Shown here piece by piece: positions 5-63,355 of a stretch of DNA of 63,355 bases. Within the stretch, counting starts at the first letter, position 1; each line of letters starts with the position of its first letter. Under the pieces are notes generated by a model that ran no database searches, was not told the origin of the DNA, and worked only from the letters and a program-made list of their open reading frames with translations. Source of the DNA: an uncultured virus (IMG/VR IMGVR_UViG_3300025674_009014) (Duplodnaviria; Heunggongvirae; Uroviricota; Caudoviricetes); IMG/VR virus record IMGVR_UViG_3300025674_009014. One strand, given 5' to 3'. A program made the position numbers and the translations under genes.

Positions 5-3000
5 ATGAACAAATTAAAATTATCTTTAATTACTTCTTGCTACAATGCAGAAAAATTTATTGATGAAACTGCAGAATCTATATTATCTCAAAATTATGAT
101 AATTGGGAATGGTTGATATCTGATGATTTTTCAACGGATAACACTTATCAATCTATTGAAAAAATTAGTCAAAAAGATAATAGAATAAAAATAATTGTTC
201 CTAGATATAAAAAAGAAATTTGGTGGAATCCGCAGACTCATGCTAATGGTGACATTGTTTGTCATATAGATTCTGATGACATTCTGTTACCGAATACTTT
301 AGACAGAATTAACTATTATTTTAATTTGTTTCCTGAAAGTGTTTTGATGCACTTTAATGCAAACAAATATTTTGATGAATTTCCAAAAAATCCTAGAGAA
401 GACTTTTTAAGTAATTTCAAGGATAATGTTTTTATGACAACTGATAATGATTCTTTTCTGGAAGGCTTTGAAAAACTATGGCCGAATCGAACAAACATTT
501 TCGGCTATCTAAGAATTTTTAGAAATTTACCTGGAATTCAATTTCCAGTACATGAAGATGGTGACGCATGTTCGTCTAATGATGGCCAGTGGTTATTGAT
601 GTTGGAAGAGAGGGGTAAATGGGTCACAATTCCTAGGACCACTTATCTCGCAAGAGATCATGGAAATTCAGAAAATTATAGAAATTGGAATCCAAGAGGT
701 GAAGCACAACTAGCAATAGATGCTAGGAAAAGAAGAAAAGAATTTATTTTAGAATATCCAAGAAATATTAAATATTTTGATGATATTTATGATGCGGCAG
801 AATCAACATACACATCATTATTGAATCATGAAAATGAATCTAAAATAATCAGTTTTTGTAATTTTAATTATGATGCTCAAAAACAAGATAAAATTTTAAA
901 ATTATTCTATGATCATGAAATATATTTTGATTACTATGGAAATGTTGATTACTTTTATATTAAAATTAATTTAGAAACTAAACCGAATGATATAAGTTTC
1001 TTTATCAATATGATTGAAGAACAAAATAAAAATTCATGCGAAATAGTGTTATTTTGTGATAATTCTCATTTAATGAGAAATAATAGAACCCATGAAGATA
1101 TTTTGTTAAATATTAATAATTTATTGACAGAAATGGGTTATCATTTTTTGTGGTATAATAAAGACAATAGATTTACTATTGTTACAAATTCTAAACATGA
1201 AAATAAGAAGGTAATCGAAGTTAAAGAACAAGATTTTGAAGAAAAAAAATCACATAATGAATTAAATATTGTTGAAGCATTTGAGAAATTTGATGAATTA
1301 AATATTTTACAAATACATTCTGGTTGTGGAATTGAAATTCCTCCAAAAGGATATGGAGGAGTTGAGGAAGTTATTGGTCAGTATATAAATGCTGGTAAAA
1401 GAAGAGGTCACAATGTACAATTAAAGTATCTAGATTATATAACACAAACCGATTTAGAAGAGTTTGATGTTTTTCATAATCATATGGCAAATTTTAATGA
1501 TTTATTGAAAAATAGATTTATTCCATATATACACACTGTTCATGATGCCTGGGTAGGATTACAACAAAAATATAGTCCTTCTTACAATTTAATAAAATCT
1601 ACTATTAATAATTCGATTTTAAGTTTAACACCTATAGAGAATTTTATTTCATATTTTGACGCAAAAGACAAATTATATCATTTACATCATGGTGTAGATA
1701 CTAATTTTTATTATCCAAACTATGATAAAATTAAAGGAGAGAGATTAGTTTGTGTAGGAGGTGGGGATGATAGAAAAGGATTTCATTTAGCTATTCTTGC
1801 CGCACATAAACTAGGGTTACCTATTACTATTATAGGTGCTGATTCTATACACGATGATTACAATAAAGTTTTTTATCAAATTTATGAAGATTGTAAAAAT
1901 GATATTGAAATAAATTTATTGGGCAATGTATTAAAAAAAGATTTGAGAAAAATTTTAGCAGAACAGGATATTATAATACATCCAGCATCCATGGAAACAG
2001 GACAACCTTGCTTAGGTGTTCTTGAGGGAATGGCATGTGGTTTACCAGTAGTCGGAACTTTACAGGATGAGATGGAAATATCTGGTTTTTATCAGTGCGA
2101 TAGAACTGTTGATAGTATTGTTAATGGGATCAAGCACCACTTGAATAATCTAGATGCTTCATCAAATGAAGCAAGAAATTATGCGGTAAGCAGGAACTGG
2201 GATAATATATTTTTAAAATTAGAAAAATTTTATTATCAGGCCAAAGAATTAAAAAACAATGTTCCTTTTAAAATGGGCGATAGATTAATTTTTACATACA
2301 ATAATGATTTAAAAAATATTAATTTTGATGAATTCAAAAAAACAAATTTTGATATAACTATGAATCCTTATCCGAGAGTTGACATAAAAGGAAACGGTGA
2401 TGAAAAATTTATAGTTAGATTTTCAGATAAAGAGAGTGGACAGATTCATTATGAAAATGTGATAGGGGTGAATTGTTGGGCCGCATCATCTTTGGCCTAT
2501 TATGTGCCTTGGAAAATAGAAATATTCGAAGAAGAAACCGAAAAATTAGTTCATTATTATGAGACTGATTTAAAAGATAAAAAGGTTTTTATTTGGATTG
2601 ATTCTTCAGCAATGGGAGATAATTTGGCGTGGATGCAACCAATTGAAGAATTCAGAAAAAAACACAATTGTAAGATGATATGTAGCACCTTTTTCAATGA
2701 ATTATTTGAAAATGAATATCCTGATATTAAATTTGAGGCTCCTAATTCTGGATATAAAGATTTCGATTATCAATATAGAATTGGATTTTTTGAAAAATGC
2801 GAATTATCTCCTGTCGATTGTAAAGAAGTATCTCTTCAAGAGTTATGTGCACGAATATTAGGTTTCGATGATTGGGTTGAAAAACCATCTAAAATAACGG
2901 TTTATGAACAAGAAAATGAACTGGAAAAACCTTATGTGGCAATTGGCGTTCAGTCTACAGCACAAGCAAAATATTGGAATAATCCTGGTGCTTGGGATAA

Positions 3001-3448
3001 AGTTGTTGAGTATATAAAAAATAAAGGTTATGATGTTGTATGTGTCGATAAACACGGATCATTCGGTCAAGGCGAATATTTCAATTTAAGTCCTAAGAAT
3101 GTTATACCGAGACACGAAAGAACACTAAATCAAACAATAGCGACAATTGATAAAGCGAAGTTTTTTATAGGACTAGGTTCTGGATTGTCTTGGTTGGCAT
3201 GGTCTCTAAATAAAGATGTGATATTAATCTCAGGTTTTAGTAATCCATTATCTGAATTTTCTACAAAATGTCATAGAATTTTTAATGACAAAACTTGTAA
3301 TAGCTGCTATAATAGGCATAAGTTTAATCCTGGAGATTGGCTATGGTGTCCTGATCATAAAGGCACAGAAAGGATGTTTGAATGCACTGAAAATATAACT
3401 CCCGAAATGGTATTCGAAAAGATTGACAATTTAATAGAAATGGAATAA
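5..3448 (+). CDS. Multidomain glycosyltransferase: GT2 + GT4 + Aah/TibC-family protein O-heptosyltransferase
   Basis: N-terminal GT2 (SLITSCYNAEKFI...DDFSTD, DSDD). Central GT4/GT-B (IPPKGYGGVEE...HPASMETGQPCLGVLEGMACGLPVV). C-terminal Aah/TibC signatures (SAMGD, QSTAQAKYWNNP, FIGLGSGLSWLAW, ISGFS, CNSC..WCP..FEC). ATG at 5; the track's TTG at 2 is at the window edge. Confidence 0.88.
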   Translation: MNKLKLSLITSCYNAEKFIDETAESILSQNYDNWEWLISDDFSTDNTYQSIEKISQKDNRIKIIVPRYKKEIWWNPQTHANGDIVCHIDSDDILLPNTLDRINYYFNLFPESVLMHFNANKYFDEFPKNPREDFLSNFKDNVFMTTDNDSFLEGFEKLWPNRTNIFGYLRIFRNLPGIQFPVHEDGDACSSNDGQWLLMLEERGKWVTIPRTTYLARDHGNSENYRNWNPRGEAQLAIDARKRRKEFILEYPRNIKYFDDIYDAAESTYTSLLNHENESKIISFCNFNYDAQKQDKILKLFYDHEIYFDYYGNVDYFYIKINLETKPNDISFFINMIEEQNKNSCEIVLFCDNSHLMRNNRTHEDILLNINNLLTEMGYHFLWYNKDNRFTIVTNSKHENKKVIEVKEQDFEEKKSHNELNIVEAFEKFDELNILQIHSGCGIEIPPKGYGGVEEVIGQYINAGKRRGHNVQLKYLDYITQTDLEEFDVFHNHMANFNDLLKNRFIPYIHTVHDAWVGLQQKYSPSYNLIKSTINNSILSLTPIENFISYFDAKDKLYHLHHGVDTNFYYPNYDKIKGERLVCVGGGDDRKGFHLAILAAHKLGLPITIIGADSIHDDYNKVFYQIYEDCKNDIEINLLGNVLKKDLRKILAEQDIIIHPASMETGQPCLGVLEGMACGLPVVGTLQDEMEISGFYQCDRTVDSIVNGIKHHLNNLDASSNEARNYAVSRNWDNIFLKLEKFYYQAKELKNNVPFKMGDRLIFTYNNDLKNINFDEFKKTNFDITMNPYPRVDIKGNGDEKFIVRFSDKESGQIHYENVIGVNCWAASSLAYYVPWKIEIFEEETEKLVHYYETDLKDKKVFIWIDSSAMGDNLAWMQPIEEFRKKHNCKMICSTFFNELFENEYPDIKFEAPNSGYKDFDYQYRIGFFEKCELSPVDCKEVSLQELCARILGFDDWVEKPSKITVYEQENELEKPYVAIGVQSTAQAKYWNNPGAWDKVVEYIKNKGYDVVCVDKHGSFGQGEYFNLSPKNVIPRHERTLNQTIATIDKAKFFIGLGSGLSWLAWSLNKDVILISGFSNPLSEFSTKCHRIFNDKTCNSCYNRHKFNPGDWLWCPDHKGTERMFECTENITPEMVFEKIDNLIEME

Positions 3449-27500: not shown

Positions 27501-30500
27501 ATGAATAATTTTTTAAATGATACAGAAAATGTTTTAATAGAAAAAAGAATTTCTAATTTAATAGAACAGCAATTGCCTTCTTTTTTACTTGAAGAAGGTC
27601 CTGAATTTGCAAGATTCTTAAAGACTTACTATAAATGGTCAGAATTGCATGAATTAACAGTTAACGATGTTGTGCAATTTGAGTTTAGGTTTTTTACTGA
27701 AAACGATGAAAACTTTTTAACTGAAAATGATGAAATTGTTATATTAGAGTCTGTTAGAAATGATTTTAGTGCTTTTATTAATGGCGAAACTATTATAGGA
27801 CAGCAATCAGGTGCTTCTGCAACTGTAGATAGAGATACTTATTTAAATAGTGATAAGATATATGTCAAAAATTTAACACGTATTGATTTTATTCCAGATG
27901 AAATAATTAAAGGGCAAACATCAAGAGTAGAAGCTAGAGTTAATTCTTTTTTTAAAAATCCTATGTTTGCGTCTAGATCTTTATTAAAAAATATAGATTT
28001 GAATACATCTACTACAACATATATCGATTTATTTTTTAAACAATTTTTAACTGATTTTGATTTTAATTTAGAAGCCGATAAGGCACATATAATAAAACAC
28101 ATTGTAGATGTTTATAGATCAAAAGGTTCGAATATATCCTTTGATTTTTTGTTCAAAACTTTATATAATGAGCAAAATTTAATTTATTACACTCCAAAAG
28201 AAGATATTTTTAAATTATCATCGGGACAATGGGTATCTAATAAATTACTGAGAATAGAAAGTGATGATCCTCTGATATATTTTGAAGGTAGAACTATTAC
28301 AGGTAAAAAAAGTTTATCAACTGCAATTGTTGATAGAGTCGATAGATTTGCATTAGGAAATTTAGTAGTTACAGAATTATTTCTAATAAATCCTCAAGGA
28401 AATTTTGTTATAGGTGAAACTATAAAAACAAATACAGTAGATGATGTATATGGTGAAGGTGTGGTTAGAGGAGTTATGACTGATGTTGACATTGTGAATC
28501 CTGGAACCGATTATGTGGTGGGTGATATTTTAACTATAACTGGCGGAGGCGGTATAGAAGCAACCGCAAAAGTCAGTGAGATTGCCAGTGGTATTTTAAC
28601 AGATTTTGAAATATTAGATGGTGGCGATGCTTACACATTAGAATCTGAATTGACTGTTAACAATTTCGGAACAAGAGGTTCAGGATTTGCAGGCAGAATA
28701 ACTGAAATACAGGATGCGTATACTTTTCATTTTAATAATGATTATATTTTTAATCATGCTGCTACTTTTTTAGACGCATTTGCATATGGAATGTCAGGAG
28801 ATCCTAGTTGTAATATAAGTTGTAGATTAATTGATGCTTTAGGATTTTTAAAATTAAATGCTGGACCAATTTCTTCTATAAAAACATTAGTTATCGGAAC
28901 TGGTTATGAATCAGAACCAAGCATTAGTGTAATAGAAAATCAGGTGTTGAATTTTTCAGATGATAGTGGTGTTAAAATTCTTAACCTAAATCCTGATCCT
29001 GATGATTTCATTTTTACGACAGCAATAACTGGTTTTTTTGATGCCAGTGAACGAATATATTCAGAAGATGGTAATAAAGTAGGAACTTTTTTCGGTTTGG
29101 TTCTTGATGAAAATAATACATCTAATCCATCTAGAATGAGAGTAAAAAATCTAGAATATTTGGGAGTTTATGGATTAGGTGCAAATGATTTAACGTTAGA
29201 TAATTCAAATTATTTAAATCCAGACAATCCTACCATATATGATTTAAGAATTGTTACAGGCGGTAAGATAGGTAATAGTTACAACAATTTTCAATTCAGA
29301 AGAGGTTTACGGGCAAATGATGAAAACATAGATGATGCTAATAATTACATTGATATTGAATATACTGATGAATATACAGATATGACTGCCGATTTTCAAA
29401 CTTTAAAATTTAATATCGATACCATATCAAAAGTTAACACAGATGCTATAGTTACAACAACATATAAACATGGTTTAGAAACTGGTTTAAGTGTAAATAT
29501 ATCTGGTGCTGATGATGATTTTTATAACGGTACCCATGAAATAGTTGTAATCAATAATTATTCTTTTAAGTATACTGTTGATTCGTTGGCAACAACACCT
29601 GTAACTGGTAATTTGTATTATGATGAAGGAATGGTTATTAAATTTACAACTCCATATAATCATGATCCAACCGATAGATTTTTGTTATCTGCAGTAGATT
29701 TTGAATCAAATGAAGTAATTATAGGATATAATAGTGGCGCAAGAGCAACTGTAAACACAGGAGCAGCATTTAGTCCGAATATTAATAAGGGCAGTAATGC
29801 TGTGGTGAGAGGTAGATCAGATGAAAATCAAAGTGGAGCAATTGCTGATATTGAAATAACTAATTTTGGAATAGGATATTCTACATCACCATCGATCAGT
29901 GCAACAGAAATAGGTGCGGGTAATGCTGTATTGACTGCCAGAATTGGTGCTATGGCAGATTCTCCTGGTAAATATTTTGATGAAAATGGTTTTTTGAGTT
30001 ATAATAAGAAAATTTTTGATGGATATTATTATCAGGATTATTCATATGTATTGAAGAATAAAATTCAATTTAATGAATATGAACAAGTTTTAAAAAGATT
30101 AATTCACCCAGCCGGAACAAAAATGTTTGGAGAATATATTATTCAGGCGGATGATTTGATTTTTAGTTTCGATAATTTTATAACTTTTGAAGATGGTTCT
30201 CCAATATTCATAGAAGGTGAAAATAATAATAGATTTTTAGCAGAGAAATATTTTGAGCCGAATCATAATGTTGAGTTTTATAGAAGAAAAGATATTGCAA
30301 CATATGGATCGGGTACATTAGTCAGGATTCAAGGCGGAAATAATATTATATCAACATCGAATTCTATTCAAAAATTAAGTGTTGATTTTGATGCTAATAG
30401 TTCAGTTATCATAGATGATGAGCAAAAATTTTTAATCACATATGGTGAGTTTAAACTTGAAAATTATTATAAGGGTAAAATATCATCTGATACTCAAAAT

Positions 30501-31982
30501 GTTCTTAGTAGAATAATTTTAAGTAATCCCGTAAGTTATACCAAGAATAATCTTTTCATAAATGAAGATTATTCCAATCTATTATTAGAAGACGGATTGT
30601 CATTATTAGGATTAGAAAATTATCAATATACCGAAGGATTAATTTCAAATTTTAGAGTAAATGATACTTTAAATCAAAGACTGAGTAATGGACATATTAT
30701 TACAACATCTGTTTTTAAAACAGAAACGGATAGTTCAAACAATAGGGTAATATTAGTGCATAATTCTGATTCATTAAATCTGGATCTAAGTTTAAATGTT
30801 TATACTAATGATACGACATCATCTTTAATCAGTTTTGATTCTAATTTAATTATTTCTAATACTTATGCATATAAAATACCTAAGATAGTCAATACAAGTT
30901 ATAATGTGAGAGATATAATAATAGAAACAGAATTAGATCATTCATTGGAAAATGATAATCGCATAACAATTTTAGACTCTAAACCATATAATGAATTAAA
31001 AATTTATGATGGAACTTATAATATTAAAGTGTTGGATAATAAAAGATTTCAAATTAGCACAACATTTTTAATTAGAAATGATTCAGTACCAGATTTTTAT
31101 ACTGCAAATGTTTATGTGACAGAAGGATCAGATTTTCAAAATGATTTTAAAGAGGGTGATTTTATAATTTTTAATAATAATAATTTAGAATCAGAGGTGC
31201 GCTCTATTATTAACTCATCTTGCATTTCTTTGGGAACAAGAATAACTTCAGATAAAACTGGTTCTTATAATTTGATAACCGAAAATTATCCTCCAGATAA
31301 CATCATATTAGAAGAAGAAGATGATGATGGTGGTGTGATAAATTTAACTCTTAATCAGAGAATATCAGATTTGACATCTTATGACAATAAGAATTACGAG
31401 TCTCATTTAATATTAGAACAAACTGTCAGAGGTTATACTACAGCAAATGGATTGAATGATGGACGCACAACTCTAGTTGGAATAAATTCTAAATTTCATT
31501 TGGATTTAATGGTTAATGATATAATAGCATTAACAACTAAAGAAGATATGACCTCAAAGATATTACAGATAAATGATTTTAATATTTTAATTTTAGAAGA
31601 TGATTTTAATCTTATAATAGATAATGATGGTATAAGTAGATTGATAGCGGAAGATTCTATAGAAAATCAAGAATTAGTTTTGAGTAGGCCATTAGGTAAT
31701 GGTACAGATGAACAAGAAATTATTTTATTTTCGACTAGAAATTTAGATTTAGAAGAAACAGATGATATAATGTTCTTAAATGTTCCATATGATGGATCTA
31801 ATAATTATATCAGAGTCAATGATTCATCGGCAAGAAAAGATGAAGGTTTACTTTTGCTTGATGATGGTGTTGGATCGAACAATCCTGCATATAATGGAAG
31901 TGTTTCATTATTGGGTAAAATATTATTTGAATCAAACACTCCATTTTATGATGTTAAATTAAAAACAGAAACAAAGTACTAA
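27501..31982 (+). CDS. 7: Baseplate wedge initiator, gp7-like, with inserted domains (1493 aa)
   Basis: IEQQLPSF..FLKTYYKW, YRSKGS..FLFKTLYN, YYQDYSYVLK..LIHPAGTKMFGE; lies between gp6 and gp8. Confidence 0.75.
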   Translation: MNNFLNDTENVLIEKRISNLIEQQLPSFLLEEGPEFARFLKTYYKWSELHELTVNDVVQFEFRFFTENDENFLTENDEIVILESVRNDFSAFINGETIIGQQSGASATVDRDTYLNSDKIYVKNLTRIDFIPDEIIKGQTSRVEARVNSFFKNPMFASRSLLKNIDLNTSTTTYIDLFFKQFLTDFDFNLEADKAHIIKHIVDVYRSKGSNISFDFLFKTLYNEQNLIYYTPKEDIFKLSSGQWVSNKLLRIESDDPLIYFEGRTITGKKSLSTAIVDRVDRFALGNLVVTELFLINPQGNFVIGETIKTNTVDDVYGEGVVRGVMTDVDIVNPGTDYVVGDILTITGGGGIEATAKVSEIASGILTDFEILDGGDAYTLESELTVNNFGTRGSGFAGRITEIQDAYTFHFNNDYIFNHAATFLDAFAYGMSGDPSCNISCRLIDALGFLKLNAGPISSIKTLVIGTGYESEPSISVIENQVLNFSDDSGVKILNLNPDPDDFIFTTAITGFFDASERIYSEDGNKVGTFFGLVLDENNTSNPSRMRVKNLEYLGVYGLGANDLTLDNSNYLNPDNPTIYDLRIVTGGKIGNSYNNFQFRRGLRANDENIDDANNYIDIEYTDEYTDMTADFQTLKFNIDTISKVNTDAIVTTTYKHGLETGLSVNISGADDDFYNGTHEIVVINNYSFKYTVDSLATTPVTGNLYYDEGMVIKFTTPYNHDPTDRFLLSAVDFESNEVIIGYNSGARATVNTGAAFSPNINKGSNAVVRGRSDENQSGAIADIEITNFGIGYSTSPSISATEIGAGNAVLTARIGAMADSPGKYFDENGFLSYNKKIFDGYYYQDYSYVLKNKIQFNEYEQVLKRLIHPAGTKMFGEYIIQADDLIFSFDNFITFEDGSPIFIEGENNNRFLAEKYFEPNHNVEFYRRKDIATYGSGTLVRIQGGNNIISTSNSIQKLSVDFDANSSVIIDDEQKFLITYGEFKLENYYKGKISSDTQNVLSRIILSNPVSYTKNNLFINEDYSNLLLEDGLSLLGLENYQYTEGLISNFRVNDTLNQRLSNGHIITTSVFKTETDSSNNRVILVHNSDSLNLDLSLNVYTNDTTSSLISFDSNLIISNTYAYKIPKIVNTSYNVRDIIIETELDHSLENDNRITILDSKPYNELKIYDGTYNIKVLDNKRFQISTTFLIRNDSVPDFYTANVYVTEGSDFQNDFKEGDFIIFNNNNLESEVRSIINSSCISLGTRITSDKTGSYNLITENYPPDNIILEEEDDDGGVINLTLNQRISDLTSYDNKNYESHLILEQTVRGYTTANGLNDGRTTLVGINSKFHLDLMVNDIIALTTKEDMTSKILQINDFNILILEDDFNLIIDNDGISRLIAEDSIENQELVLSRPLGNGTDEQEIILFSTRNLDLEETDDIMFLNVPYDGSNNYIRVNDSSARKDEGLLLLDDGVGSNNPAYNGSVSLLGKILFESNTPFYDVKLKTETKY

Positions 31983-47248: not shown

Positions 47249-48166
47249 ATGTTAGGACAAACTTTCTACCATCAAACCATTAGAAAATATGTAGCTGTTT
47301 TTGGCACATTATTCAATGATATTAGCATTCAGAAAAAAAATTCTAGTGGAAATATTGTATCTACCATTAAAGTTCCAGTCGCTTATGGACCTAAGCAGAA
47401 GTTTTTAAACAGATTACAATCTGATCCAAACTTAGATCGTCAAATATCGATTAAATTACCCAGAATTGGTTTTGAAATGACCAATATTAATTATGATCCA
47501 GAGAGAAAATTAAATCCTATTGGCAGACAATTCAGAAAAAGTTTTGATGATGGTAACAGAATACTGAAATCGTTATATAATCCAAATCCATATACATTTG
47601 ATTTTAGTTTGTTTTTATTTGTTGAAAATGCTGAAGATGGTACACAAATATTAGAACAGATTTTACCTTTTTTTACTCCAGAATTTACAGTCAGTGTAAA
47701 TATTCTTACGGAAATGGGTATTAAATTAGATGTTCCAATTATTTTAAATTCCGCATCAGTAGAAGATGAGTATATAGGTGATTTTACTCAAAGGAGAGCA
47801 ATAGTTTGGACTTTAGATTTTACTTTAAAAGGTTTCATATATCCTAATATAAAATCATCTGATAAAATAATAAAATCCATTTCTATAGCATTCAGAGATT
47901 TAGACATTAATAATCAGGGTGAGTTTAATTTAGATTATTTGGAGTTGGAAAGTTCAACTAATTATGCGAATGAAAGAATCAAATTAGAAAATGATGATTA
48001 TTTTCTTTTTGAAACTAGCAATGATAATTTAAGTCATAGAAATGTAATATCAGATATTACCATTGAACCTCAGACAGAAAACAGTAAAGAATTGGTTGAC
48101 AAGACCTTAACAATTTTCAATCCTCCAGTATTGTATGATGCTGACACAGATGAGTATGAATCATGA
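47249..48166 (+). CDS. 15: Tail sheath stabiliser/terminator gp15
   Basis: FYHQTIRKYVAVFGTLFNDI, KVPVAYGPKQKFL.RL, LPRIGFEM, QILEQILPFF.P. Confidence 0.95.
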   Translation: MLGQTFYHQTIRKYVAVFGTLFNDISIQKKNSSGNIVSTIKVPVAYGPKQKFLNRLQSDPNLDRQISIKLPRIGFEMTNINYDPERKLNPIGRQFRKSFDDGNRILKSLYNPNPYTFDFSLFLFVENAEDGTQILEQILPFFTPEFTVSVNILTEMGIKLDVPIILNSASVEDEYIGDFTQRRAIVWTLDFTLKGFIYPNIKSSDKIIKSISIAFRDLDINNQGEFNLDYLELESSTNYANERIKLENDDYFLFETSNDNLSHRNVISDITIEPQTENSKELVDKTLTIFNPPVLYDADTDEYES

Positions 48167-48899: not shown

Positions 48900-52458
<3,559 letters not shown>

Positions 52459-55593: not shown

Positions 55594-57264
55594 ATGCTAT
55601 TTGATATATTTGGATTTACTATCGGAAAAAAAGAATCCAAGAAAAATGAAAAGATACAAAGTTTTGCTCAAGTTGAACATGAAGACGGTGCGGTTACCGT
55701 AGCATCTGGAGGTGCTTATGGAACGTATATTGATACTGAAGGTGCCATAAAGAGCGAATCAGAGTTAATAAATCGTTATAGAGATATGTCCTTACAGGCA
55801 GAAGTCGAAAATGCTATAGACGATATTGTTAATGAAGCGATTATATCAATAAAAGACAATCCTATAGTGGATATAAAATTAGATAATCTAAACCTATCCG
55901 AAAATATAAAAAATAAAATAAGAGCAGAATTCAAAGAGATATCTAAATTATTAGATTTTCAAAATTTAGGTTATGATTTATTCAGAAGATGGTATGTTGA
56001 TGGTAGAATTTATTATCATGTTGTTATTGATGAAAAAAATACTAAAAAAGGTATTCACGAATTAAGATTATTAGATCCTCGCAAGATAAAAAAAATCAGA
56101 GAAAATAAATCTCTAAAACTTCCAAATGGTGACACTCAAAAACAAATACAAGAATATTATGTCTATAATGAAAAAGGTATATATCAATCGCAAGGACAGA
56201 CAATAGGAACTGCATTTACAAATGCAGCATCTGGTTTAAAAATTTCTTTAGATTCTATTGTTTATTGTCATTCTGGATTATTAAATTCCACAAAATCATT
56301 AGTATTATCATACTTACATAAAGCTATAAAACCTCTCAATATGCTCAGAATGATTGAAGATTCTTTAGTCATTTATAGGATATCAAGGGCACCCGAAAGA
56401 AGAATTTTTTATGTAGATGTTGGAAATTTACCTAAAGTACGAGCAGAACAATATATGCGTGATTTGATGACAAGATATAAAAATAAACTTGTTTATGATG
56501 CGAATACTGGTGAAATACGTGATGATAGAAAACATATGTCAATGTTAGAAGATTACTGGATGCCTAGAATGGAGGGGGGTAGAGGTACCGAGGTAACAAC
56601 ATTGCCAGGAGGTCAAAATCTAGGTGATATAGAAGATGTTATATACTTTCAAAAGAAACTTTATAAATCATTAGGTGTTCCACTCTCTAGATTAGAATCA
56701 GAAGCATCTTATACCATTGGTAGAGCAACGGAAATTTCCAGAGACGAAGTTAAATTTACCAGATTTATTAATAGATTACAAAATAAATTTTCAATTTTAT
56801 TTGATGAATTATTGGAGAGACAATTAAGTCTTAAAGGTATTATGAGTAGAGATGATTTTAAAGAAATTAAAAATCAACTCTATTATCATTATGAAAGTGA
56901 TAGTCATTTCACAGAAATGAAAAGAAATGAATTATTACAAGACAGACTTAACTTATTAAGAGATTTATCAGAATACACTGGAAAATATTATTCTAATGAG
57001 TATGTGAGAAAAAATATTTTATTGATGAGTGATGATGACATCAAAACAAATGATGAACAAATTGCGAAAGAACTGGAAGATCCAAGATTTTCTGGAGAAG
57101 ATGATATGCAAATGAATAATTCTTACGAACAAGAATCTGAAAATGTTTTGAATGAAAATCTCATTGAGAAAATTATAGAAAGCAAATTTGAATCTAGTAA
57201 AAATGACGAAAAACTGAAAAACACTATAAATGATATTTTATCTACTATAAAGTTAGACGATTAA
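55594..57264 (+). CDS. 20: Portal protein gp20
   Basis: FRRWYVDGR, LSYLHKAIKP.NMLRMIEDSLVIYRISRAPERRIFYVDVGNLPK, EDYWMPR.EGGRGTE. Confidence 0.98.
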   Translation: MLFDIFGFTIGKKESKKNEKIQSFAQVEHEDGAVTVASGGAYGTYIDTEGAIKSESELINRYRDMSLQAEVENAIDDIVNEAIISIKDNPIVDIKLDNLNLSENIKNKIRAEFKEISKLLDFQNLGYDLFRRWYVDGRIYYHVVIDEKNTKKGIHELRLLDPRKIKKIRENKSLKLPNGDTQKQIQEYYVYNEKGIYQSQGQTIGTAFTNAASGLKISLDSIVYCHSGLLNSTKSLVLSYLHKAIKPLNMLRMIEDSLVIYRISRAPERRIFYVDVGNLPKVRAEQYMRDLMTRYKNKLVYDANTGEIRDDRKHMSMLEDYWMPRMEGGRGTEVTTLPGGQNLGDIEDVIYFQKKLYKSLGVPLSRLESEASYTIGRATEISRDEVKFTRFINRLQNKFSILFDELLERQLSLKGIMSRDDFKEIKNQLYYHYESDSHFTEMKRNELLQDRLNLLRDLSEYTGKYYSNEYVRKNILLMSDDDIKTNDEQIAKELEDPRFSGEDDMQMNNSYEQESENVLNENLIEKIIESKFESSKNDEKLKNTINDILSTIKLDD

Positions 57265-57268
57265 TTAA

Positions 57269-60200
57269 ATGTCAAATGATAATAATAAGCAATTAAAACT
57301 AAATGAAGTTTTAGCTGCATCTCTAGCATACACTCAAAAAGAATTTAAAAGAGCTAAGCAAGAGCTAATAAAAGATATAAAAGAAATTTTTGATCCTGAA
57401 ACTGGTGAGAAGATAAAAGTTCTTGAAATAGCAGGTGAGCAAGGTCCTAGAGGTGAAAAGGGTGAAAAAGGTTTAGATGGTTCTCCTGGTGAAAGAGGAG
57501 AAAAAGGTGAGAAAGGTGATCCAGGTAAAATAGGGCCACAAGGACTTCAAGGGCCACAAGGACCTCAGGGAGAAATTGGACCACAAGGTCCTCAGGGTGA
57601 TGTAGGTCCAAAAGGCGATGACGCACAAGTAGAACCATTAAAGCAAGAGTTAGAAAAATTAAAAACTGTTGTAAAAAATATTGGTTCACAAGCAGCATCT
57701 ACTGCGCAAAAAGTATCGACTGGTTGGGGAGATACTTATGGAGGAGGTGGCGGTAGTGATATTGTATCAATAGGTAAAAACTTAGAAGTCACATCTAACA
57801 CAGTACAACTATATTCAAATGTAGAATATACTCCAACAAAAACTACCTTAAAATTTAAATCAATAAAAACAGGTAGTGGTCTTTTTGCTGCACAGAATAA
57901 TTCTTCCATAATTATATCTTTTGATCCTGATTTATTGTCAATAAATGATGATAATAATTTAGTCGTCAATCAATCATTGATTATCGGACAGACTCAATCT
58001 TTAAAAATTGGTGAAGGTACACAAAATGCTGTATTAGGTTTTCACAGCACCTCTGGTAATGATTTTACTATTAGAGATAGTAATGGTGACAGAATATTTT
58101 CAGTTCTTGAGTTAAAAGAAGTCGATGAAAGTTTTCTGGGCTCTGAAGGAGATGTTTTAAGGGTTACGTCCAATAATACTTTAGAGTTTTCTCCTGCCTC
58201 GAAACCTATAGAGATTTCTGAAACGCAGGTTTCTGGAAATACAATCTCAAATTTAGAACACATATCCGTAAATTCTGATGATGGTTTTTATTTAGAAAAT
58301 GGTCAAAACAATTCTTCAGTTATTATTAGATCAAATATATTAGATCAGATAAGACCATTAACTTCAGGATCATCAGGATCAGCAGGAACTTCAGGATCAG
58401 CAGGAACTTCAGGAACTTCAGGATCATCAGGAACCTCAGGAGTAGATGGAAATTTTGGAGGCGCTTCTTTTGAATATGATTATGATGATTCTATCATCGG
58501 TGATCCTTCAACTGGAATTTTTAGATTCAATAGCACATCATCTGCATCTATAACTGAATTGATTATAAATCACTTGGATAATAATTCTAGTGATATAGAA
58601 TCATTTCTACACACTATAGCTGGATCGACAAGCACGATTAAGGGTCATGTTAGAATTTCTCTAAAAGGTGATAATTCTGCATACATGCTATTTACCATTA
58701 GTGATTCTGTCGATGGTGGTGCTGGTAATAATTTTGATATAGTATCAATCAATTATGTTACTTCTTCTAATGAAATTCCATTTAATGATGGCGATAGCTG
58801 TGTGGTTACATTTGCTAGAACGGGTGATGCAGGAACATCTGGTACTTCTGGTTCATCCGGTACAGCAGGATCTTCTGGTTCATCTGGTCGAGATGCAAGT
58901 GCAGGATCATCAGGATCATCAGGATCATCTGGTACATCAGGAACTTCAGGATCTGTAGGTAGTGCAGGTAGTGCTGGATCATCTGGAAGTTCAGGTAGTG
59001 CAGGATCATCTGGAAGTTCAGGTAGTGCAGGATCATCTGGAAGTTCAGGTAGTGCAGGTAGTGCCGGATCAGCAGGTAGTGCAGGATCTTCAGGTTCAGC
59101 AGGTAGTGCAGGTAGTGCCGGATCAGCAGGTAGTGCAGGATCTTCAGGCTCAGCAGGTAGTGCAGGTAGTGCCGGATCAGCAGGTAGTGCAGGTAGTGCA
59201 GGTAGTGCTGGATCATCTGGAAGTGCCGGATCATCAGGTTCTGCAGGTAGTTCTGGTTCATCTGGTAGTTCAGGAAGTGCTGGAACTTCTGGATCGTCTG
59301 GACTAACATATGCAAGTTCTGGTTCATCTGGTAGTTCAGGAAGTGCTGGAACTTCTGGATCATCGGGAACTTCTGGATCATCGGGAACTTCTGGATCATC
59401 CGGTAGCGCTGGAAGTGCAGGAAGTGCAGGTAGTGCTGGTTCATCTGGTAGTTCAGGAAGTGCTGGAACTTCTGGATCGTCTGGATTAACATATGCAAGT
59501 TCTGGTAGCGCAGGTTCGTCTGGAACATCTGGTAGTGCTGGAACTTCTGGTAGTTCTGGTAGTGCTGGAACTTCAGGTAGTTCTGGTAGTGCTGGATCAT
59601 CTGGAAGTTCTGGATCTGCAGGTAGTTCTGGAAGTGCAGGAAGTGCAGGTAGTGCTGGATCATCTGGAAGTTCTGGATCTGCAGGTAGTTCTGGAAGTTC
59701 TGGATCTGCTGGTTCTGCTGGATCTGCAGGTAGTTCTGGAAGTTCTGGATCTGCAGGTAGTTCTGGAAGTTCTGGATCTGCAGGTAGTTCTGGAAGTTCT
59801 GGATCTGCAGGTAGTTCTGGAAGTTCTGGATCTGCTGGTTCTGCTGGATCTGCAGGTAGTTCTGGAAGTTCTGGATCTGCTGGTTCTGCAGGTAGTTCTG
59901 GAAGTTCTGGATCTGCCGGTTCTGCTGGATCTGCAGGCAGTTCTGGTTCATCTGGTACTTCTGGCACATCTGGTTCTGCTGGTACTTCTGGGGTTGATGG
60001 AAATTTTGGTGGCGCAGGCTTTGAATTTGAATACGAGAACGTACAAAGTCCATTCAATACATCATTTCCTTATGGTTTATTTCGATTAAATAATGGAACT
60101 CAAAACTTATCAGATAAAATATACATTAAATTTTTTGATAATAATTATACAGATTTACAAAATTTTCTTAGAACAATAGATGATTCAACTAGCACCGTAA

Positions 60201-63200
60201 AAGGTCATTTAAAGATTTCTAAAAAAGGACAAGAAGAAGATTTTTTATTATTTGTAATAACTCAAAATTTAATAGAACATCCTCAAGAATCTTACTATGA
60301 ATTAAGTATTCAAATATTAGAAGAATCTTCAACAATTCCTTTTAACGATGAAGATATTTGTGTATTAACTTTTGCAAGAACTGGTGATAAAGGTGAAAAA
60401 GGAGATGATGGATCATCAGGATCTTCTGGTACATCTGGAACTGCAGGAACAGCAGGATCTGCAGGAACTTCAGGATCTTCTGGTCGAGATGCAAGTGCTG
60501 GTTCTTCTGGATCTGCAGGTACCGCAGGATCTTCTGGTAGTTCGGGTTCTGCTGGTTCTTCAGGAACTTCTGGTAGTTCAGGAAGTTCAGGAACTTCAGG
60601 ATCATCTGGTCGAGATGCAAGTGCGGGTTCCGCCGGTACATCAGGATCCTCTGGAAGTTCAGGTTCCGCCGGTACATCAGGATCCTCTGGAAGTTCAGGT
60701 TCTGCTGGCAGTGCTGGATCTTCTGGTAGTTCAGGTTCTGCTGGCACATCAGGATCCTCTGGAAGTTCTGGATCCTCTGGAAGTTCAGGTTCTGCTGGCA
60801 GTGCTGGATCTTCTGGTAGTTCAGGTTCTGCTGGCACATCAGGATCCTCTGGAAGTTCTGGATCCTCTGGAAGTGCTGGATCAGCAGGTAGTGCTGGAAG
60901 TGCTGGATCAGCAGGTAGTGCTGGAAGTGCAGGATCTTCTGGATCCTCAGGATTTGACGGTGATCGATATAGTACAATTTCTTATACAACAAATGTTGTA
61001 GATGTTGTTGGCTTTAAAACTTTTATACTTGAAGATATTGATAGACAATATGCTCCACGACAAGAAGTATTAATTTCATACGGAAATGATTATAGAACTT
61101 ATTTTCAAGGTGTAGTTGTCAGTTATAATGATAAAACAGGTGTATTAGTAATAGATCCTGAAGAAGCGGAGATGTCATCGTATCATCTTCAATTAAATGA
61201 TAGAAGAGATGAAATTCATCAAATAGCTTTAGAAAATGATGGATATTTGTTAAATGAACAAGACAATAGTAAACTTGAGACTGAAAATTTAATAAAAACA
61301 CTATCACTAGAAAATGATGAACAATTACTACTAGAAAACGGATCAGAAAAACTTATAATAGAAGAAAAAGAATATGATTTTTCTAGTGGAATGTATGTAG
61401 GAAATTTTGATAAATTAGTTTTAGAAAATGGTGACAAATTTCTTTTTGAAGAGGCTGAAGGTATTCATGATCTTCTGATTGAGGATGGTAGCAATTTTAT
61501 ATTAGAAAATACATTTTCGTTCTGGTATGTGAATCTAAGAGGCGCTCAGGGTATTCCAGGGTCATCAGGTTCATCAGGTAGCAGTGGCAGTGCAGGCAGT
61601 TCCGGAAGTTCTGGATCTTCTGGAAGTTCGGGAAGTTCAGGTTCATCAGGTAGCAGTGGCAGTGCAGGTAGTTCTGGTAGTGCAGGTAGTTCTGGTAGTG
61701 CAGGTAGTTCTGGCAGTGCAGGTAGTTCTGGAAGTTCAGGAAGTGCAGGATCTTCTGGTTCATCTGGTCGAGATGCAAGTGCAGGATCTTCAGGATCGTC
61801 AGGCACATCTGGAACTTCAGGTTCTACAGGAACTTCAGGTTCTACAGGAACTTCTGGATCATCAGGTAAAGATGGAACTTCTGGAAGAGATGCTAGTGCT
61901 GGTACTTCTGGTTCGGCAGGAACTTCAGGAGAAGCACCATACGCATATGTCTATAAAGTAACAGTTAATTTAGATGAAGGTGGTGAGAATGTTTTCACAT
62001 TTGATGAAGTTCCTTTAGATTCATTATTACTGTATAAAGGTTTTAAATATAAATTTGAACTGGATGATCCTTCAAATTTAAATTATGAATTATCTTTATC
62101 TAATTATTTTGAGGGTATTCATAATCCAGGATCTATTGGACAAGATGATATAGATGTTACATATGGTATCGAAAGAATTGGTACTCCAGGAACACCTGGT
62201 GCTTATATCGCATATCAAGTTCCTTTTTCATCGAATCCTATAATTTATTATTATAATAAGGTTTCTCCTGGAAATTCCAATGAAATAATAATTGAAAGAA
62301 TTTCTTCAGGCACATCGGGATCAGCAGGTTCATCAGGCAGTGCTGGATCAGCAGGTTCATCAGGCAGTGCTGGAAGTGCTGGATCTTCTGGTTCATCTGG
62401 AAGTTCTGGTAGTGCCGGATCAGCAGGTAGTGCCGGATCAGCAGGGTCTGCTGGTAGTGCTGGTAGTGCCGGATCAGCAGGTAGTGCAGGAAGTGCTGGT
62501 AGTGCTGGATCAGCAGGTAGTGCAGGAAGTGCTGGCAGTGCCGGATCAGCAGGTAGTGCAGGATCAGCAGGTAGTGCAGGATCAGCAGGTAGTGCGGGAA
62601 GTGCTGGTAGTGCAGGATCAGCAGGTAGTAGTGGTACATCTGGTGTAGATGGTGGTACATACGTACACAGTCAAACAACTCCTAGTAGATATTGGGTCAT
62701 AAATCATAATTTAAATACCAGTAGACCTGTAAATGTTATATTCACTGATTCTGATTATGTACAAATATTTCCGCAAACTGTAAGATTTACAACAAGAAAT
62801 TCTATTGAGATCATATGGCCAGTGGGGGTTAATCAAACTGGTTATGCAACTGTAACTTTTGGGGACAGTTCTTCAGGATCAGCAGGTAGTGCAGGTAGTT
62901 CTGGTTCTGCAGGTTCTTCTGGCTCTACAGGAACATCTGGATCTTCTGGTCGTGATGGTGGTGCATTTATTCATCGACAAGATATAGCATCCACAACTTG
63001 GATAGTTAATCACTATCTAGGCACTAGACCTTTAAGTTTTGCCATCACAGATTTAGATTTTAATGTAATTTTAACTGATAAAGTTTCTTATATCGATAAT
63101 AATACAGTTCAAATTACTTTTCCTAAACCCACAACAGGATATGTTGCCTTAACATTCGGAGATTCATCTTCAGGATCAGCAGGTAGCAGTGGTAGTGCAG

Positions 63201-63355
63201 GTAGTGCAGGATCAGCAGGTAGTGCAGGGTCTGCCGGTAGTGCTGGATCAGCAGGTAGTGCAGGGTCTGCCGGTAGTGCAGGGTCTGCCGGTAGTGCCGG
63301 ATCAGCAGGTAGTGCAGGTAGTGCAGGTAGTGCAGGATCAGCAGGTAGTGCAGGG
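57269..63355 (+). CDS. Giant collagen-like, Gly-Ser/Ala/Thr-rich fibre protein (>=2029 aa, 3' end beyond the window)
   Basis: ATG 4 nt after the portal stop; frame stays open to the window end. MSNDNNKQLK..., a classical GPQ/GEK collagen tract, then (GSA/GSS/GTS)n blocks alternating with globular domains. Confidence 0.9.
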   Translation, partial: MSNDNNKQLKLNEVLAASLAYTQKEFKRAKQELIKDIKEIFDPETGEKIKVLEIAGEQGPRGEKGEKGLDGSPGERGEKGEKGDPGKIGPQGLQGPQGPQGEIGPQGPQGDVGPKGDDAQVEPLKQELEKLKTVVKNIGSQAASTAQKVSTGWGDTYGGGGGSDIVSIGKNLEVTSNTVQLYSNVEYTPTKTTLKFKSIKTGSGLFAAQNNSSIIISFDPDLLSINDDNNLVVNQSLIIGQTQSLKIGEGTQNAVLGFHSTSGNDFTIRDSNGDRIFSVLELKEVDESFLGSEGDVLRVTSNNTLEFSPASKPIEISETQVSGNTISNLEHISVNSDDGFYLENGQNNSSVIIRSNILDQIRPLTSGSSGSAGTSGSAGTSGTSGSSGTSGVDGNFGGASFEYDYDDSIIGDPSTGIFRFNSTSSASITELIINHLDNNSSDIESFLHTIAGSTSTIKGHVRISLKGDNSAYMLFTISDSVDGGAGNNFDIVSINYVTSSNEIPFNDGDSCVVTFARTGDAGTSGTSGSSGTAGSSGSSGRDASAGSSGSSGSSGTSGTSGSVGSAGSAGSSGSSGSAGSSGSSGSAGSSGSSGSAGSAGSAGSAGSSGSAGSAGSAGSAGSAGSSGSAGSAGSAGSAGSAGSAGSAGSSGSAGSSGSAGSSGSSGSSGSAGTSGSSGLTYASSGSSGSSGSAGTSGSSGTSGSSGTSGSSGSAGSAGSAGSAGSSGSSGSAGTSGSSGLTYASSGSAGSSGTSGSAGTSGSSGSAGTSGSSGSAGSSGSSGSAGSSGSAGSAGSAGSSGSSGSAGSSGSSGSAGSAGSAGSSGSSGSAGSSGSSGSAGSSGSSGSAGSSGSSGSAGSAGSAGSSGSSGSAGSAGSSGSSGSAGSAGSAGSSGSSGTSGTSGSAGTSGVDGNFGGAGFEFEYENVQSPFNTSFPYGLFRLNNGTQNLSDKIYIKFFDNNYTDLQNFLRTIDDSTSTVKGHLKISKKGQEEDFLLFVITQNLIEHPQESYYELSIQILEESSTIPFNDEDICVLTFARTGDKGEKGDDGSSGSSGTSGTAGTAGSAGTSGSSGRDASAGSSGSAGTAGSSGSSGSAGSSGTSGSSGSSGTSGSSGRDASAGSAGTSGSSGSSGSAGTSGSSGSSGSAGSAGSSGSSGSAGTSGSSGSSGSSGSSGSAGSAGSSGSSGSAGTSGSSGSSGSSGSAGSAGSAGSAGSAGSAGSAGSSGSSGFDGDRYSTISYTTNVVDVVGFKTFILEDIDRQYAPRQEVLISYGNDYRTYFQGVVVSYNDKTGVLVIDPEEAEMSSYHLQLNDRRDEIHQIALENDGYLLNEQDNSKLETENLIKTLSLENDEQLLLENGSEKLIIEEKEYDFSSGMYVGNFDKLVLENGDKFLFEEAEGIHDLLIEDGSNFILENTFSFWYVNLRGAQGIPGSSGSSGSSGSAGSSGSSGSSGSSGSSGSSGSSGSAGSSGSAGSSGSAGSSGSAGSSGSSGSAGSSGSSGRDASAGSSGSSGTSGTSGSTGTSGSTGTSGSSGKDGTSGRDASAGTSGSAGTSGEAPYAYVYKVTVNLDEGGENVFTFDEVPLDSLLLYKGFKYKFELDDPSNLNYELSLSNYFEGIHNPGSIGQDDIDVTYGIERIGTPGTPGAYIAYQVPFSSNPIIYYYNKVSPGNSNEIIIERISSGTSGSAGSSGSAGSAGSSGSAGSAGSSGSSGSSGSAGSAGSAGSAGSAGSAGSAGSAGSAGSAGSAGSAGSAGSAGSAGSAGSAGSAGSAGSAGSAGSAGSAGSAGSSGTSGVDGGTYVHSQTTPSRYWVINHNLNTSRPVNVIFTDSDYVQIFPQTVRFTTRNSIEIIWPVGVNQTGYATVTFGDSSSGSAGSAGSSGSAGSSGSTGTSGSSGRDGGAFIHRQDIASTTWIVNHYLGTRPLSFAITDLDFNVILTDKVSYIDNNTVQITFPKPTTGYVALTFGDSSSGSAGSSGSAGSAGSAGSAGSAGSAGSAGSAGSAGSAGSAGSAGSAGSAGSAGSAGSAGSAG
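57434..57620 (+). repeat. Classical collagen Gly-X-Y tract (GEQ GPR GEK ... GPQ GPQ GDV GPK)
   Basis: About 20 consecutive triplets in the frame of ORF 57269. Confidence 0.9.
58361..63355 (+). repeat. Low-complexity 9-nt-period repeats encoding GSA/GSS/GTS triplets, in seven blocks
   Basis: Approximate blocks: 58361-58440, 58829-59994, 60409-60955, 61549-61930, 62306-62645, 62870-62950, 63170-end. Confidence 0.93.

Follow-up and report, generated by a model that had tools for sequence, protein, structure and literature searches.

Collagen-like proteins of prokaryotes are stabilized in the X and Y positions of their Gly-X-Y triplets by proline or by KGE/KGD salt bridges, as stated in PMC11923368. 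The subject of this analysis is a giant Ser-rich Gly-X-Y fibre gene in which both stabilizers are scarce. It directly follows the portal gene of an uncultured virus (IMG/VR record IMGVR_UViG_3300025674_009014; Caudoviricetes) at the end of a 63,355-nucleotide stretch, the whole of which is referred to as the window, and a glycosyltransferase fusion with an Aah/TibC-type domain lies at the opposite end. With moderate confidence, the gene product is read as a collagen-like virion fibre whose serines would be O-glycosylated by the phage's own TibC-type domain, with a helix stabilized by the sugars.

The closest described systems are the pairs TibC-TibA and Aah-AIDA-I of the bacterial autotransporter heptosyltransferase (BAHT) family (TIGR04414; PDB 4RAP and 4RB4; PMC4358343), in which, as described there, the acceptor is serine on a repetitive surface protein, as proposed here for the phage fibre. 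The window enzyme is of the same family and keeps the catalytic Asp and the iron finger; unlike BAHT members, it is fused to GT2 and GT4 domains, has neither Arg286 nor Pro/Ser300, falls outside the 12-row bacterial Arg286 clade, and would be partnered by a Gly-X-Y protein rather than an autotransporter passenger. EPclA of Escherichia coli O157 prophages likewise has Gly-X-Y rods between globular domains and is encoded in a phage structural region (PMC3368898). As described there, EPclA is short, stabilized by Pro and charge, and unglycosylated, whereas the window fibre has more than 300 Pro-free Ser/Ala triplets and repeated spacer domains. Bacillus BclA and vent-worm cuticle collagen (as cited in PMC11923368 and PMC8968730) are O-glycosylated on hydroxy residues and lack hydroxyproline, as proposed for the window fibre; those collagens are described as Thr-rich and of the Gly-Pro-Thr type, whereas the window fibre has Ser in X, often in Y, and Pro as good as absent. 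Mycobacteriophages coat their virions by means of phage-encoded glycosyltransferases (Freeman et al. 2023, as cited in PMC12619734), although the targets given there are C-termini of capsid and tail tube subunits, as opposed to the hundreds of sites proposed for the window fibre. Mimivirus is described as encoding both collagen and collagen-modifying enzymes (PMC9546862), but the chemistry is that of hydroxylysine and the virus is eukaryotic. The literature searched, mostly outside subscription journals, contained no paper that pairs the TibC family with collagen-like proteins or describes Ser-type phage collagens; genes of this kind could be listed in the supplementary annotation tables of phage metagenome studies.

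The serine-type fibre

The fibre frame begins 4 nt past the portal stop and is free of stops over 2029 aa to the window end. A near-identical virus record carries the same gene with different repeat numbers, and its frame is still open at 2320 aa. After residue 200, 311 Gly-X-Y triplets are found in runs of at least five, the longest uninterrupted run comprising 58. GSA (130), GSS (111), and GTS (35) predominate, with Ser (245) or Thr (39) in X and Ser (146) or Ala (138) in Y; Pro occurs in just one of the 311, and charged pairs are almost absent. The known stabilizers are confined to aa 56-118 and to a few triplets at block edges, which lowers the case for an ordinary prokaryotic collagen and not for a protein that works like a collagen. 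An earlier note, made from the letters of the window, had described an open reading frame (ORF) of at least 2029 aa with Pro-poor Ser/Ala/Thr triplets, globular domains between the blocks, and a short GPQ collagen in front, all of which is borne out by the counts, by domains A-D, and by aa 56-118 (Table 1). The same note called the fibre unannotated; this stands for the spacer domains, which have no Pfam family, and falls for the repeats, which score as Pfam Collagen (PF01391, 409 bits, 21 + 311 triplets with Gly at every third residue) and also match PHROG tail fibre families.

Synonymous codons are mixed within the repeats (Gly as GGA 152 and GGT 134 times; Ser as AGT, TCA, and TCT), so they are not a simple DNA repeat. 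ORFs on the opposite strand and in other frames across the repeats were rejected as shadows of the repeat, and an assembly artefact was rejected since independent records and 60 orthologues carry the gene. The Ser-type blocks contain ∼394 Ser and 47 Thr, which are the proposed acceptors of O-glycosylation. With a rise of 0.286 nm per residue, the Ser rods within the window alone would measure ∼270 nm. Contigs from RNA runs overlap short unique parts of the gene; expression is not claimed because those libraries may contain DNA.

The spacer domains place the Ser rods among other collagen-like fibres. All 75 loci read for domain A encode Gly-X-Y fibres, of Ser, Pro, Gln, or Lys flavour. Flanking the domain, 13 Gly columns in three-residue register are conserved over Ser-, Pro-, and Gln-type fibres; the support for a helix is positional, in that Ser rods replace Pro rods in register around domain A. 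Ser and Ala triplets are weak triple-helix formers. Folding that depends on sugar is suggested by analogy with (Gly-Pro-Thr)10, a coil until galactosylated as stated in PMC11923368. A trimer prediction for domain A with its flanking repeats (three copies, 47-row alignment) scored 0.20 against a mark of 0.42, which counts neither for nor against a trimer. Predicted models of domains A and D are beta-rich (pLDDT 88 and 90, respectively), and an ESM Atlas search returned unnamed clusters only, viral wherever taxa are recorded. Domain A is also present in a tail protein of Pelagibacter phage HTVC010P (E 1e-4) and in a tail-region gene of Caulobacter phage DMCA, although matches of the fibre domains to tail and virion families are weak and annotation-level. 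The virion location is consistent with domain A in an annotated tail protein and with a tail-fibre-type C-terminus in orthologues.

The TibC-type enzyme and its pairing with the repeat

The glycosyltransferase fusion recognized in the earlier note was recovered as GT2, GT4, and Aah/TibC-type domains in one chain. Asp873, Thr986, Lys990, and Trp1064 correspond to D110, T226, K230, and W305 of TibC, and Cys1099, Cys1102, Cys1116, and Cys1128 to its iron-finger cysteines. All 72 viral sequences retain Asp110, Lys230, Trp305, and the four Cys, and 71 of them retain Thr226. The TibC positions R286 and P300 are occupied by Thr1045 and Gly1059; the former is Arg in just seven of the 72, the latter is mostly Gly, and the AEDFTG-type loop of classical members is missing from the window enzyme. 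The mapping of position 286 is supported by its column, which holds Arg in classical bacterial members. In TibC, as stated in PMC4358343, Trp305, Lys230, and Thr226 touch sugar and phosphate, whereas Arg286 contacts adenine N1, excludes guanine, confers ADP specificity, and is required for activity, heptosylation being abolished or largely reduced in the R286 Ala mutant. The acceptor of TibC is Ser and not Thr according to the same source, so a Ser-dominated repeat fits.

Judged by these residues, the TibC-type domain looks like an active protein O-glycosyltransferase, and its sugar need not be heptose. The earlier note named heptose as the sugar; because Arg286 is absent from the phage enzyme, that claim is not supported. 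As a special case of the favoured reading, a heptose drawn from the host ADP-heptose pool agrees with a TIGR04414 score above the cut-off and with the retained Trp305, Lys230, and Thr226, but the loss of an arginine needed for TibC heptosylation, the replacement of Pro300 by Gly, and the missing loop make it improbable. In the enzyme tree, 12 bacterial Arg286 rows split from the other 73, and the window enzyme lies in a supported 12-row viral clade. Enzymes that glycosylate Thr collagens of the BclA type belong to a different family from TibC. The window enzyme gene is followed by a ClpP-like gene and, in the near-identical record, preceded by GT4/FkbM genes; no cognate autotransporter substrate was found among its neighbours. 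Separately, three viral loci (L059:6470-8508, L070, and L078) carry two tandem TibC-like genes that retain Arg286; their flanks contain no Ser collagen, and one record has three pattern matches elsewhere.

Enzyme and repeat occur together across many viruses. A Ser/Thr Gly-X-Y ORF lies within 10 kb of the enzyme at 32 of 80 viral loci and, after clustering at 70% identity, in 16 of 30 clusters. A strict Ser-triplet DNA pattern, which overlooks mixed GTS/GTN and GTS/GTD types, occurs in 28 of 48 whole enzyme records, and the reversed pattern in none of the 48. The converse comparison started from IMG/VR pattern scans for Ser triplets (at least 154 stretches) and Pro triplets (at least 133), with 50 contigs chosen per list, favouring long ones. 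Among the matches listed, TIGR04414 was present in 15/45 Ser-pattern versus 1/48 Pro-pattern records (p 5e-5). Translation revealed that eight Ser-pattern matches are not Ser collagens and that the sole enzyme-positive record of the Pro-pattern control set carried one; reclassified in this way, post hoc and from 10-kb flanks only, 16/38 Ser-type records have the enzyme versus 0/55 without such a collagen, and 4/4 versus 0/13 at completeness of at least 90% (again among the matches listed). Fibres with domain A give a second comparison over 72 records, the window's own virus and two others having been left out: the enzyme is present in 7/33 Ser-type records versus 0/39 of other flavours (p 0.003; similar kb searched), adjoining the fibre gene in two and ∼1 kb away in one. 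Both comparisons thus favour the co-occurrence that the earlier note had proposed to check.

TIGR04414-type domains are rare in the GenBank phage set, at four of 50,697 records; three were examined, and the fourth agrees with one of these in length and coordinates. Ser/Thr collagens accompany the enzyme in Mel-JY01 and LR756501, and in Mel-JY01, a cultured Microcystis phage, the two genes are 1.7 kb apart. The repeat gene there (PP395634, L102:2-3049, + strand) is a frame that stays open over 1016 aa and contains 202 Gly-X-Y triplets (GTS 77, GSS 57), 1.7 kb upstream of an FkbM-TibC-like fusion; GenBank has two minus-strand hypothetical genes at 1-2298, probably a mis-annotation. A literature search on Mel-JY01 found no paper.

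Bacteria show the pairing as well. A bacterial genome collection contained 37 loci with TibC-like enzymes: 11 with Arg286, 22 without, and four not aligned over their full length. A Gly-Thr/Ser-Ser gene lies in the locus of 15/22 Arg286-less enzymes (within 160 nt in 13) and of 0/11 Arg286 enzymes, and all four of the incompletely aligned group have the repeat. In Methylobacter, Polaromonas, and others, the repeat partner is a small protein that has a signal or lipoprotein-like leader and carries a tract of 11-38 triplets; a few of the contigs from metagenome-assembled genomes may be binned phage. In four Arg286 loci that were inspected, the enzyme lies beside long Ser/Thr/Gly-rich adhesin-like ORFs. 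Two-gene units that pair an Arg286-less TibC-like gene with a neighbouring gene for a small lipoprotein or exported protein containing a Gly-Thr-Ser tract (L498:8899-11098, L500-L514, L519, and L531-L533) occur in Methylobacter, Polaromonas, Burkholderiaceae, and Binatia.

In many phages and some bacteria the Ser-type repeat is accompanied by a glycosyltransferase of the TibC type, and for this reason the phage itself probably coats the fibre with sugar. The proposed fibre, similar in build to other phage collagen fibres, would begin with an anchor and a short ordinary collagen, followed by Gly-X-Y rods interrupted by small repeated beta-domains, the rods using Ser, Ala, and Thr where sister fibres have Pro or charged residues. 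The Aah/TibC-type domain would put the first sugar on serines in the cytoplasm; extension and methylation of the glycan may fall to the fused GT2 and GT4 domains and to the GT4/FkbM protein encoded upstream. The chains would trimerize, aided by the N-terminal collagen, the spacer domains, and the C-terminal domain, and would then be mounted on the virion. The sugars would probably stabilize a triple helix that has neither Pro nor salt bridges, and coat the fibre; the coat might serve adhesion, shielding, or lipopolysaccharide mimicry, the roles suggested in the earlier note.

Readings of the repeat and its enzyme

Several points weigh against a sugar-stabilized virion collagen. The glycan, the virion location, the trimeric helix, and the division of labour among the enzymes are inferred, whereas the anatomy, the conserved locus, the family and key residues of the enzyme, and the co-occurrence are observed. 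The two genes are 52 kb apart in the window, in line with the distance of more than 50 kb given in the earlier note. By closeness to the window enzyme, the 28 closest loci have no repeat within 10 kb, against 32 of the 52 others. The link is not obligatory: the enzyme occurs without a collagen in LR756504 (636 kb) and G206 (176 kb, 85% complete), and the repeat without the enzyme in G103 (148 kb, 84% complete) and G116 (23 kb, 76% complete). Most of the records are fragments, and near-duplicates are among them, with the result that the p values overstate how independent the samples are; an independent-pairs test on the enzyme tree found one pair on supported branches and has no power, and the post hoc reclassification counts on the same side. 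Domains A and D had no Foldseek match at E 0.001 and none with Z of at least 8 (best Z 6.2 and 6.9), which does not show that their folds are new. Given the short bacterial tracts, the triplet may function as a tag for acceptors and not as a helical element. The stand-alone TibC-like gene of LR756504 (L105, 457181-458245) is long-branched.

Fragment ends bear on some of these absences. Only the contigs of the window and of a relative, G005, span both genes in the window's own clade, and G005 has the same distant layout. Four fragments of this clade have no enzyme and none reaches 48-52 kb upstream of the portal, the enzyme site in the window and G005. Five close enzyme records have no collagen match or pattern, but the portal region is also outside these records; neither set counts for or against the pairing. 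The enzyme is missing from five records, all incomplete, in which the portal gene is followed by ordinary head genes.

The short bacterial tracts make one alternative a real one, namely that the enzyme glycosylates the repeats and no triple helix forms, the repeats acting as flexible bottle-brush linkers or as bundles of the polyproline-II type, with a three-residue period that reflects the acceptor pattern of the enzyme. Rods without Pro and nearly without charged pairs agree with it, as do the bacterial tracts, which lie in small exported proteins without an evident trimer domain, adjacent to the same enzyme type; Gly-rich polyproline-II bundles are known, including that of the phage S16 adhesin (PMC12227593, as described there). 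Nevertheless, the Ser rods match Pro-rich collagen exactly in place and register around domain A, run uninterrupted for up to 58 triplets, and share the chain with an ordinary collagen segment. They show long runs and no regular turns, set beside the short Gly-rich helices, turns, and compactness of polyproline-II/polyglycine-II bundles. On balance a helix-free repeat is unlikely.

That the fibre is unglycosylated, with an enzyme directed at the host surface or at different phage proteins and a co-occurrence due to shared ancestry or shared surface-gene islands, is improbable. Genomes with only one of the two genes and the lack of independent contrasts on the enzyme tree speak for it, and aquatic-phage papers interpret glycosyltransferases as modifiers of host O-chains or lipopolysaccharide (LPS), as stated in PMC7029224, PMC10747093, and PMC12801897. 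Against it stand a pairing found in records of between 66 and 735 kb, in different gene orders, and on bacterial chromosomes (often at less than 160 nt), and the 0/39 enzyme count for sister fibres with Pro or Gln rods; moreover, characterized TibC-family members modify protein Ser (PMC4358343, as described there). A glycosylated protein displayed on or released from the infected cell rather than built into the virion would agree with the signal or lipoprotein-like N-termini of bacterial partners and with head genes 26-35 kb distant in relatives, but is very unlikely for a protein that has no hydrophobic leader, is encoded after the tail sheath, tube, and portal genes on the same strand, and matches tail and virion families.

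The favoured reading, a virion collagen glycosylated by the phage, may be part of a wider pattern, which is put forward tentatively. It would involve a widespread, undescribed collagen class in which O-linked sugar on Ser replaces Pro as helix stabilizer, and an enzyme that forms a separate, Arg286-less TibC branch with a donor other than ADP-heptose. Aquatic phages would build beaded, glycan-coated virion fibres of several hundred nm, and some bacteria would use short tracts as a portable glycosylation tag on exported proteins. If so, the fibres of the virion itself are the target of many aquatic phage glycosyltransferases currently classed as modifiers of host LPS, the TibC family acquires another class of substrate and, probably, another donor, and prokaryotic collagen has a third stabilization route besides proline and salt bridges. 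The gene pair is present in cultured phage Mel-JY01 and in cultured Methylobacter strains, and the acceptor would be a simple three-residue repeat.

The locus in relatives and its neighbourhood

The window, which is low in GC, represents part of a T4-like phage genome and carries baseplate, neck, terminase, sheath, tube, and portal genes; its DNA is contained in freshwater, estuarine, and marine runs. The portal shares at most 54% identity with those of cultured phages, Synechococcus phages being the best. Portal loci were read for 76 of the 80 returned. In all 60 with portals 72-100% identical, a fibre orthologue with the same N-terminal segment lies directly downstream; at 52-57% identity, 13 loci have ordinary head genes and three further loci are too short. 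The earlier note placed the fibre gene at the head-gene site of T4: it does directly follow the portal, but the head genes are displaced, with gp23 ∼26-35 kb downstream of the portal in three relatives with a full-length match (five records searched). The fibre gene therefore opens an island inserted between portal and head genes, and its position is no proof of a head fibre.

Table 1. Features of the fibre gene, its upstream neighbour, and the glycosyltransferase fusion in the window
Feature	Position	Strand	Details
Giant Ser-rich Gly-X-Y fibre gene	57269..63355	+	at least 2029 aa; 3′ end outside window
N-terminal charged segment, aa 1-55	57269..57433	+	kept in 60/60 orthologues; candidate anchor
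Classical Pro/charged collagen, aa 56-118	57434..57622	+	21 triplets (GPQ, GEK); triplet count, Pfam
Coiled-coil-like stretch, Gly linker, non-repeat region, aa 119-366	57623..58366	+	sequence
Ser-type triplet blocks	58367..63352	+	aa 367-399, 519-919, 1039-1233, 1425-1541, 1681-1797, 1870-1899, 1969-2028
Spacer domain A copy 1, aa 394-520	58448..58828	+	mostly beta
Spacer domain A copy 2, aa 911-1040	59999..60388	+	42% identical to copy 1
Spacer domain B with acidic insert, aa 1234-1424	60968..61540	+	first 83 aa match two other Ser-collagens, 39-42%
Spacer domain C, aa 1556-1680	61934..62308	+	weak tail fibre family match, phrog_693, E 7.6e-6
Spacer domain D copy 1	62651..62866	+	72 aa, all-beta; phrog_21918; phrog_16122 virion structural protein, E 4e-4
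Spacer domain D copy 2	62957..63166	+	43% identical to copy 1
T4-type portal (gp20)	55594..57264	+	PF07230, E 7e-178; fixed upstream neighbour of fibre gene
GT2 + GT4 + Aah/TibC-type fusion, 1148 aa	2..3448	+	TIGR04414 318 bits, cut-off 200; proposed modifying enzyme
Aah/TibC-type domain of fusion, aa 800-1143	2399..3430	+	alignment to TibC, E 1e-61

The orthologues range from 879 to more than 3331 aa and have the same domains, shuffled; the frame still open at 3331 aa belongs to a relative with an 87% identical portal. Residues 1-55, the candidate anchor, match no PHROG family and Pfam only below threshold, and aa 119-366, most of which is missing in shorter orthologues, match no Pfam or PHROG family. 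Complete orthologues end in one of several C-termini, one of which matches the tail fibre family phrog_19602 (E 1.6e-11) and, below the cut-off, Peptidase_G2. They are often followed by a gene of 106-112 aa and then by a second Ser fibre. One orthologue of 2896 aa (L590:6164-14851) has PKD domains and a long Ser/Thr-rich region instead of the usual C-termini.

Short acidic motifs of the L-L-L-E-D/N-G type, noticed by eye, are repeated in domain B and recur in the baseplate and tail-completion genes at 27501-31982 and 47249-48166. At the portal gene start (55595-55600), three sequencing runs have one inserted and one omitted base relative to the window. Between the small and large terminase genes lies a 497-aa gene (48900-50393) assigned to phrog_1462. 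After the fibre genes of relatives (L571:12348-15831 and L099:2-673) come an ORF whose tail is Cys-rich, of the form (CPCNCNF)n, and radical SAM/SPASM genes, which together resemble a peptide-modification cluster.

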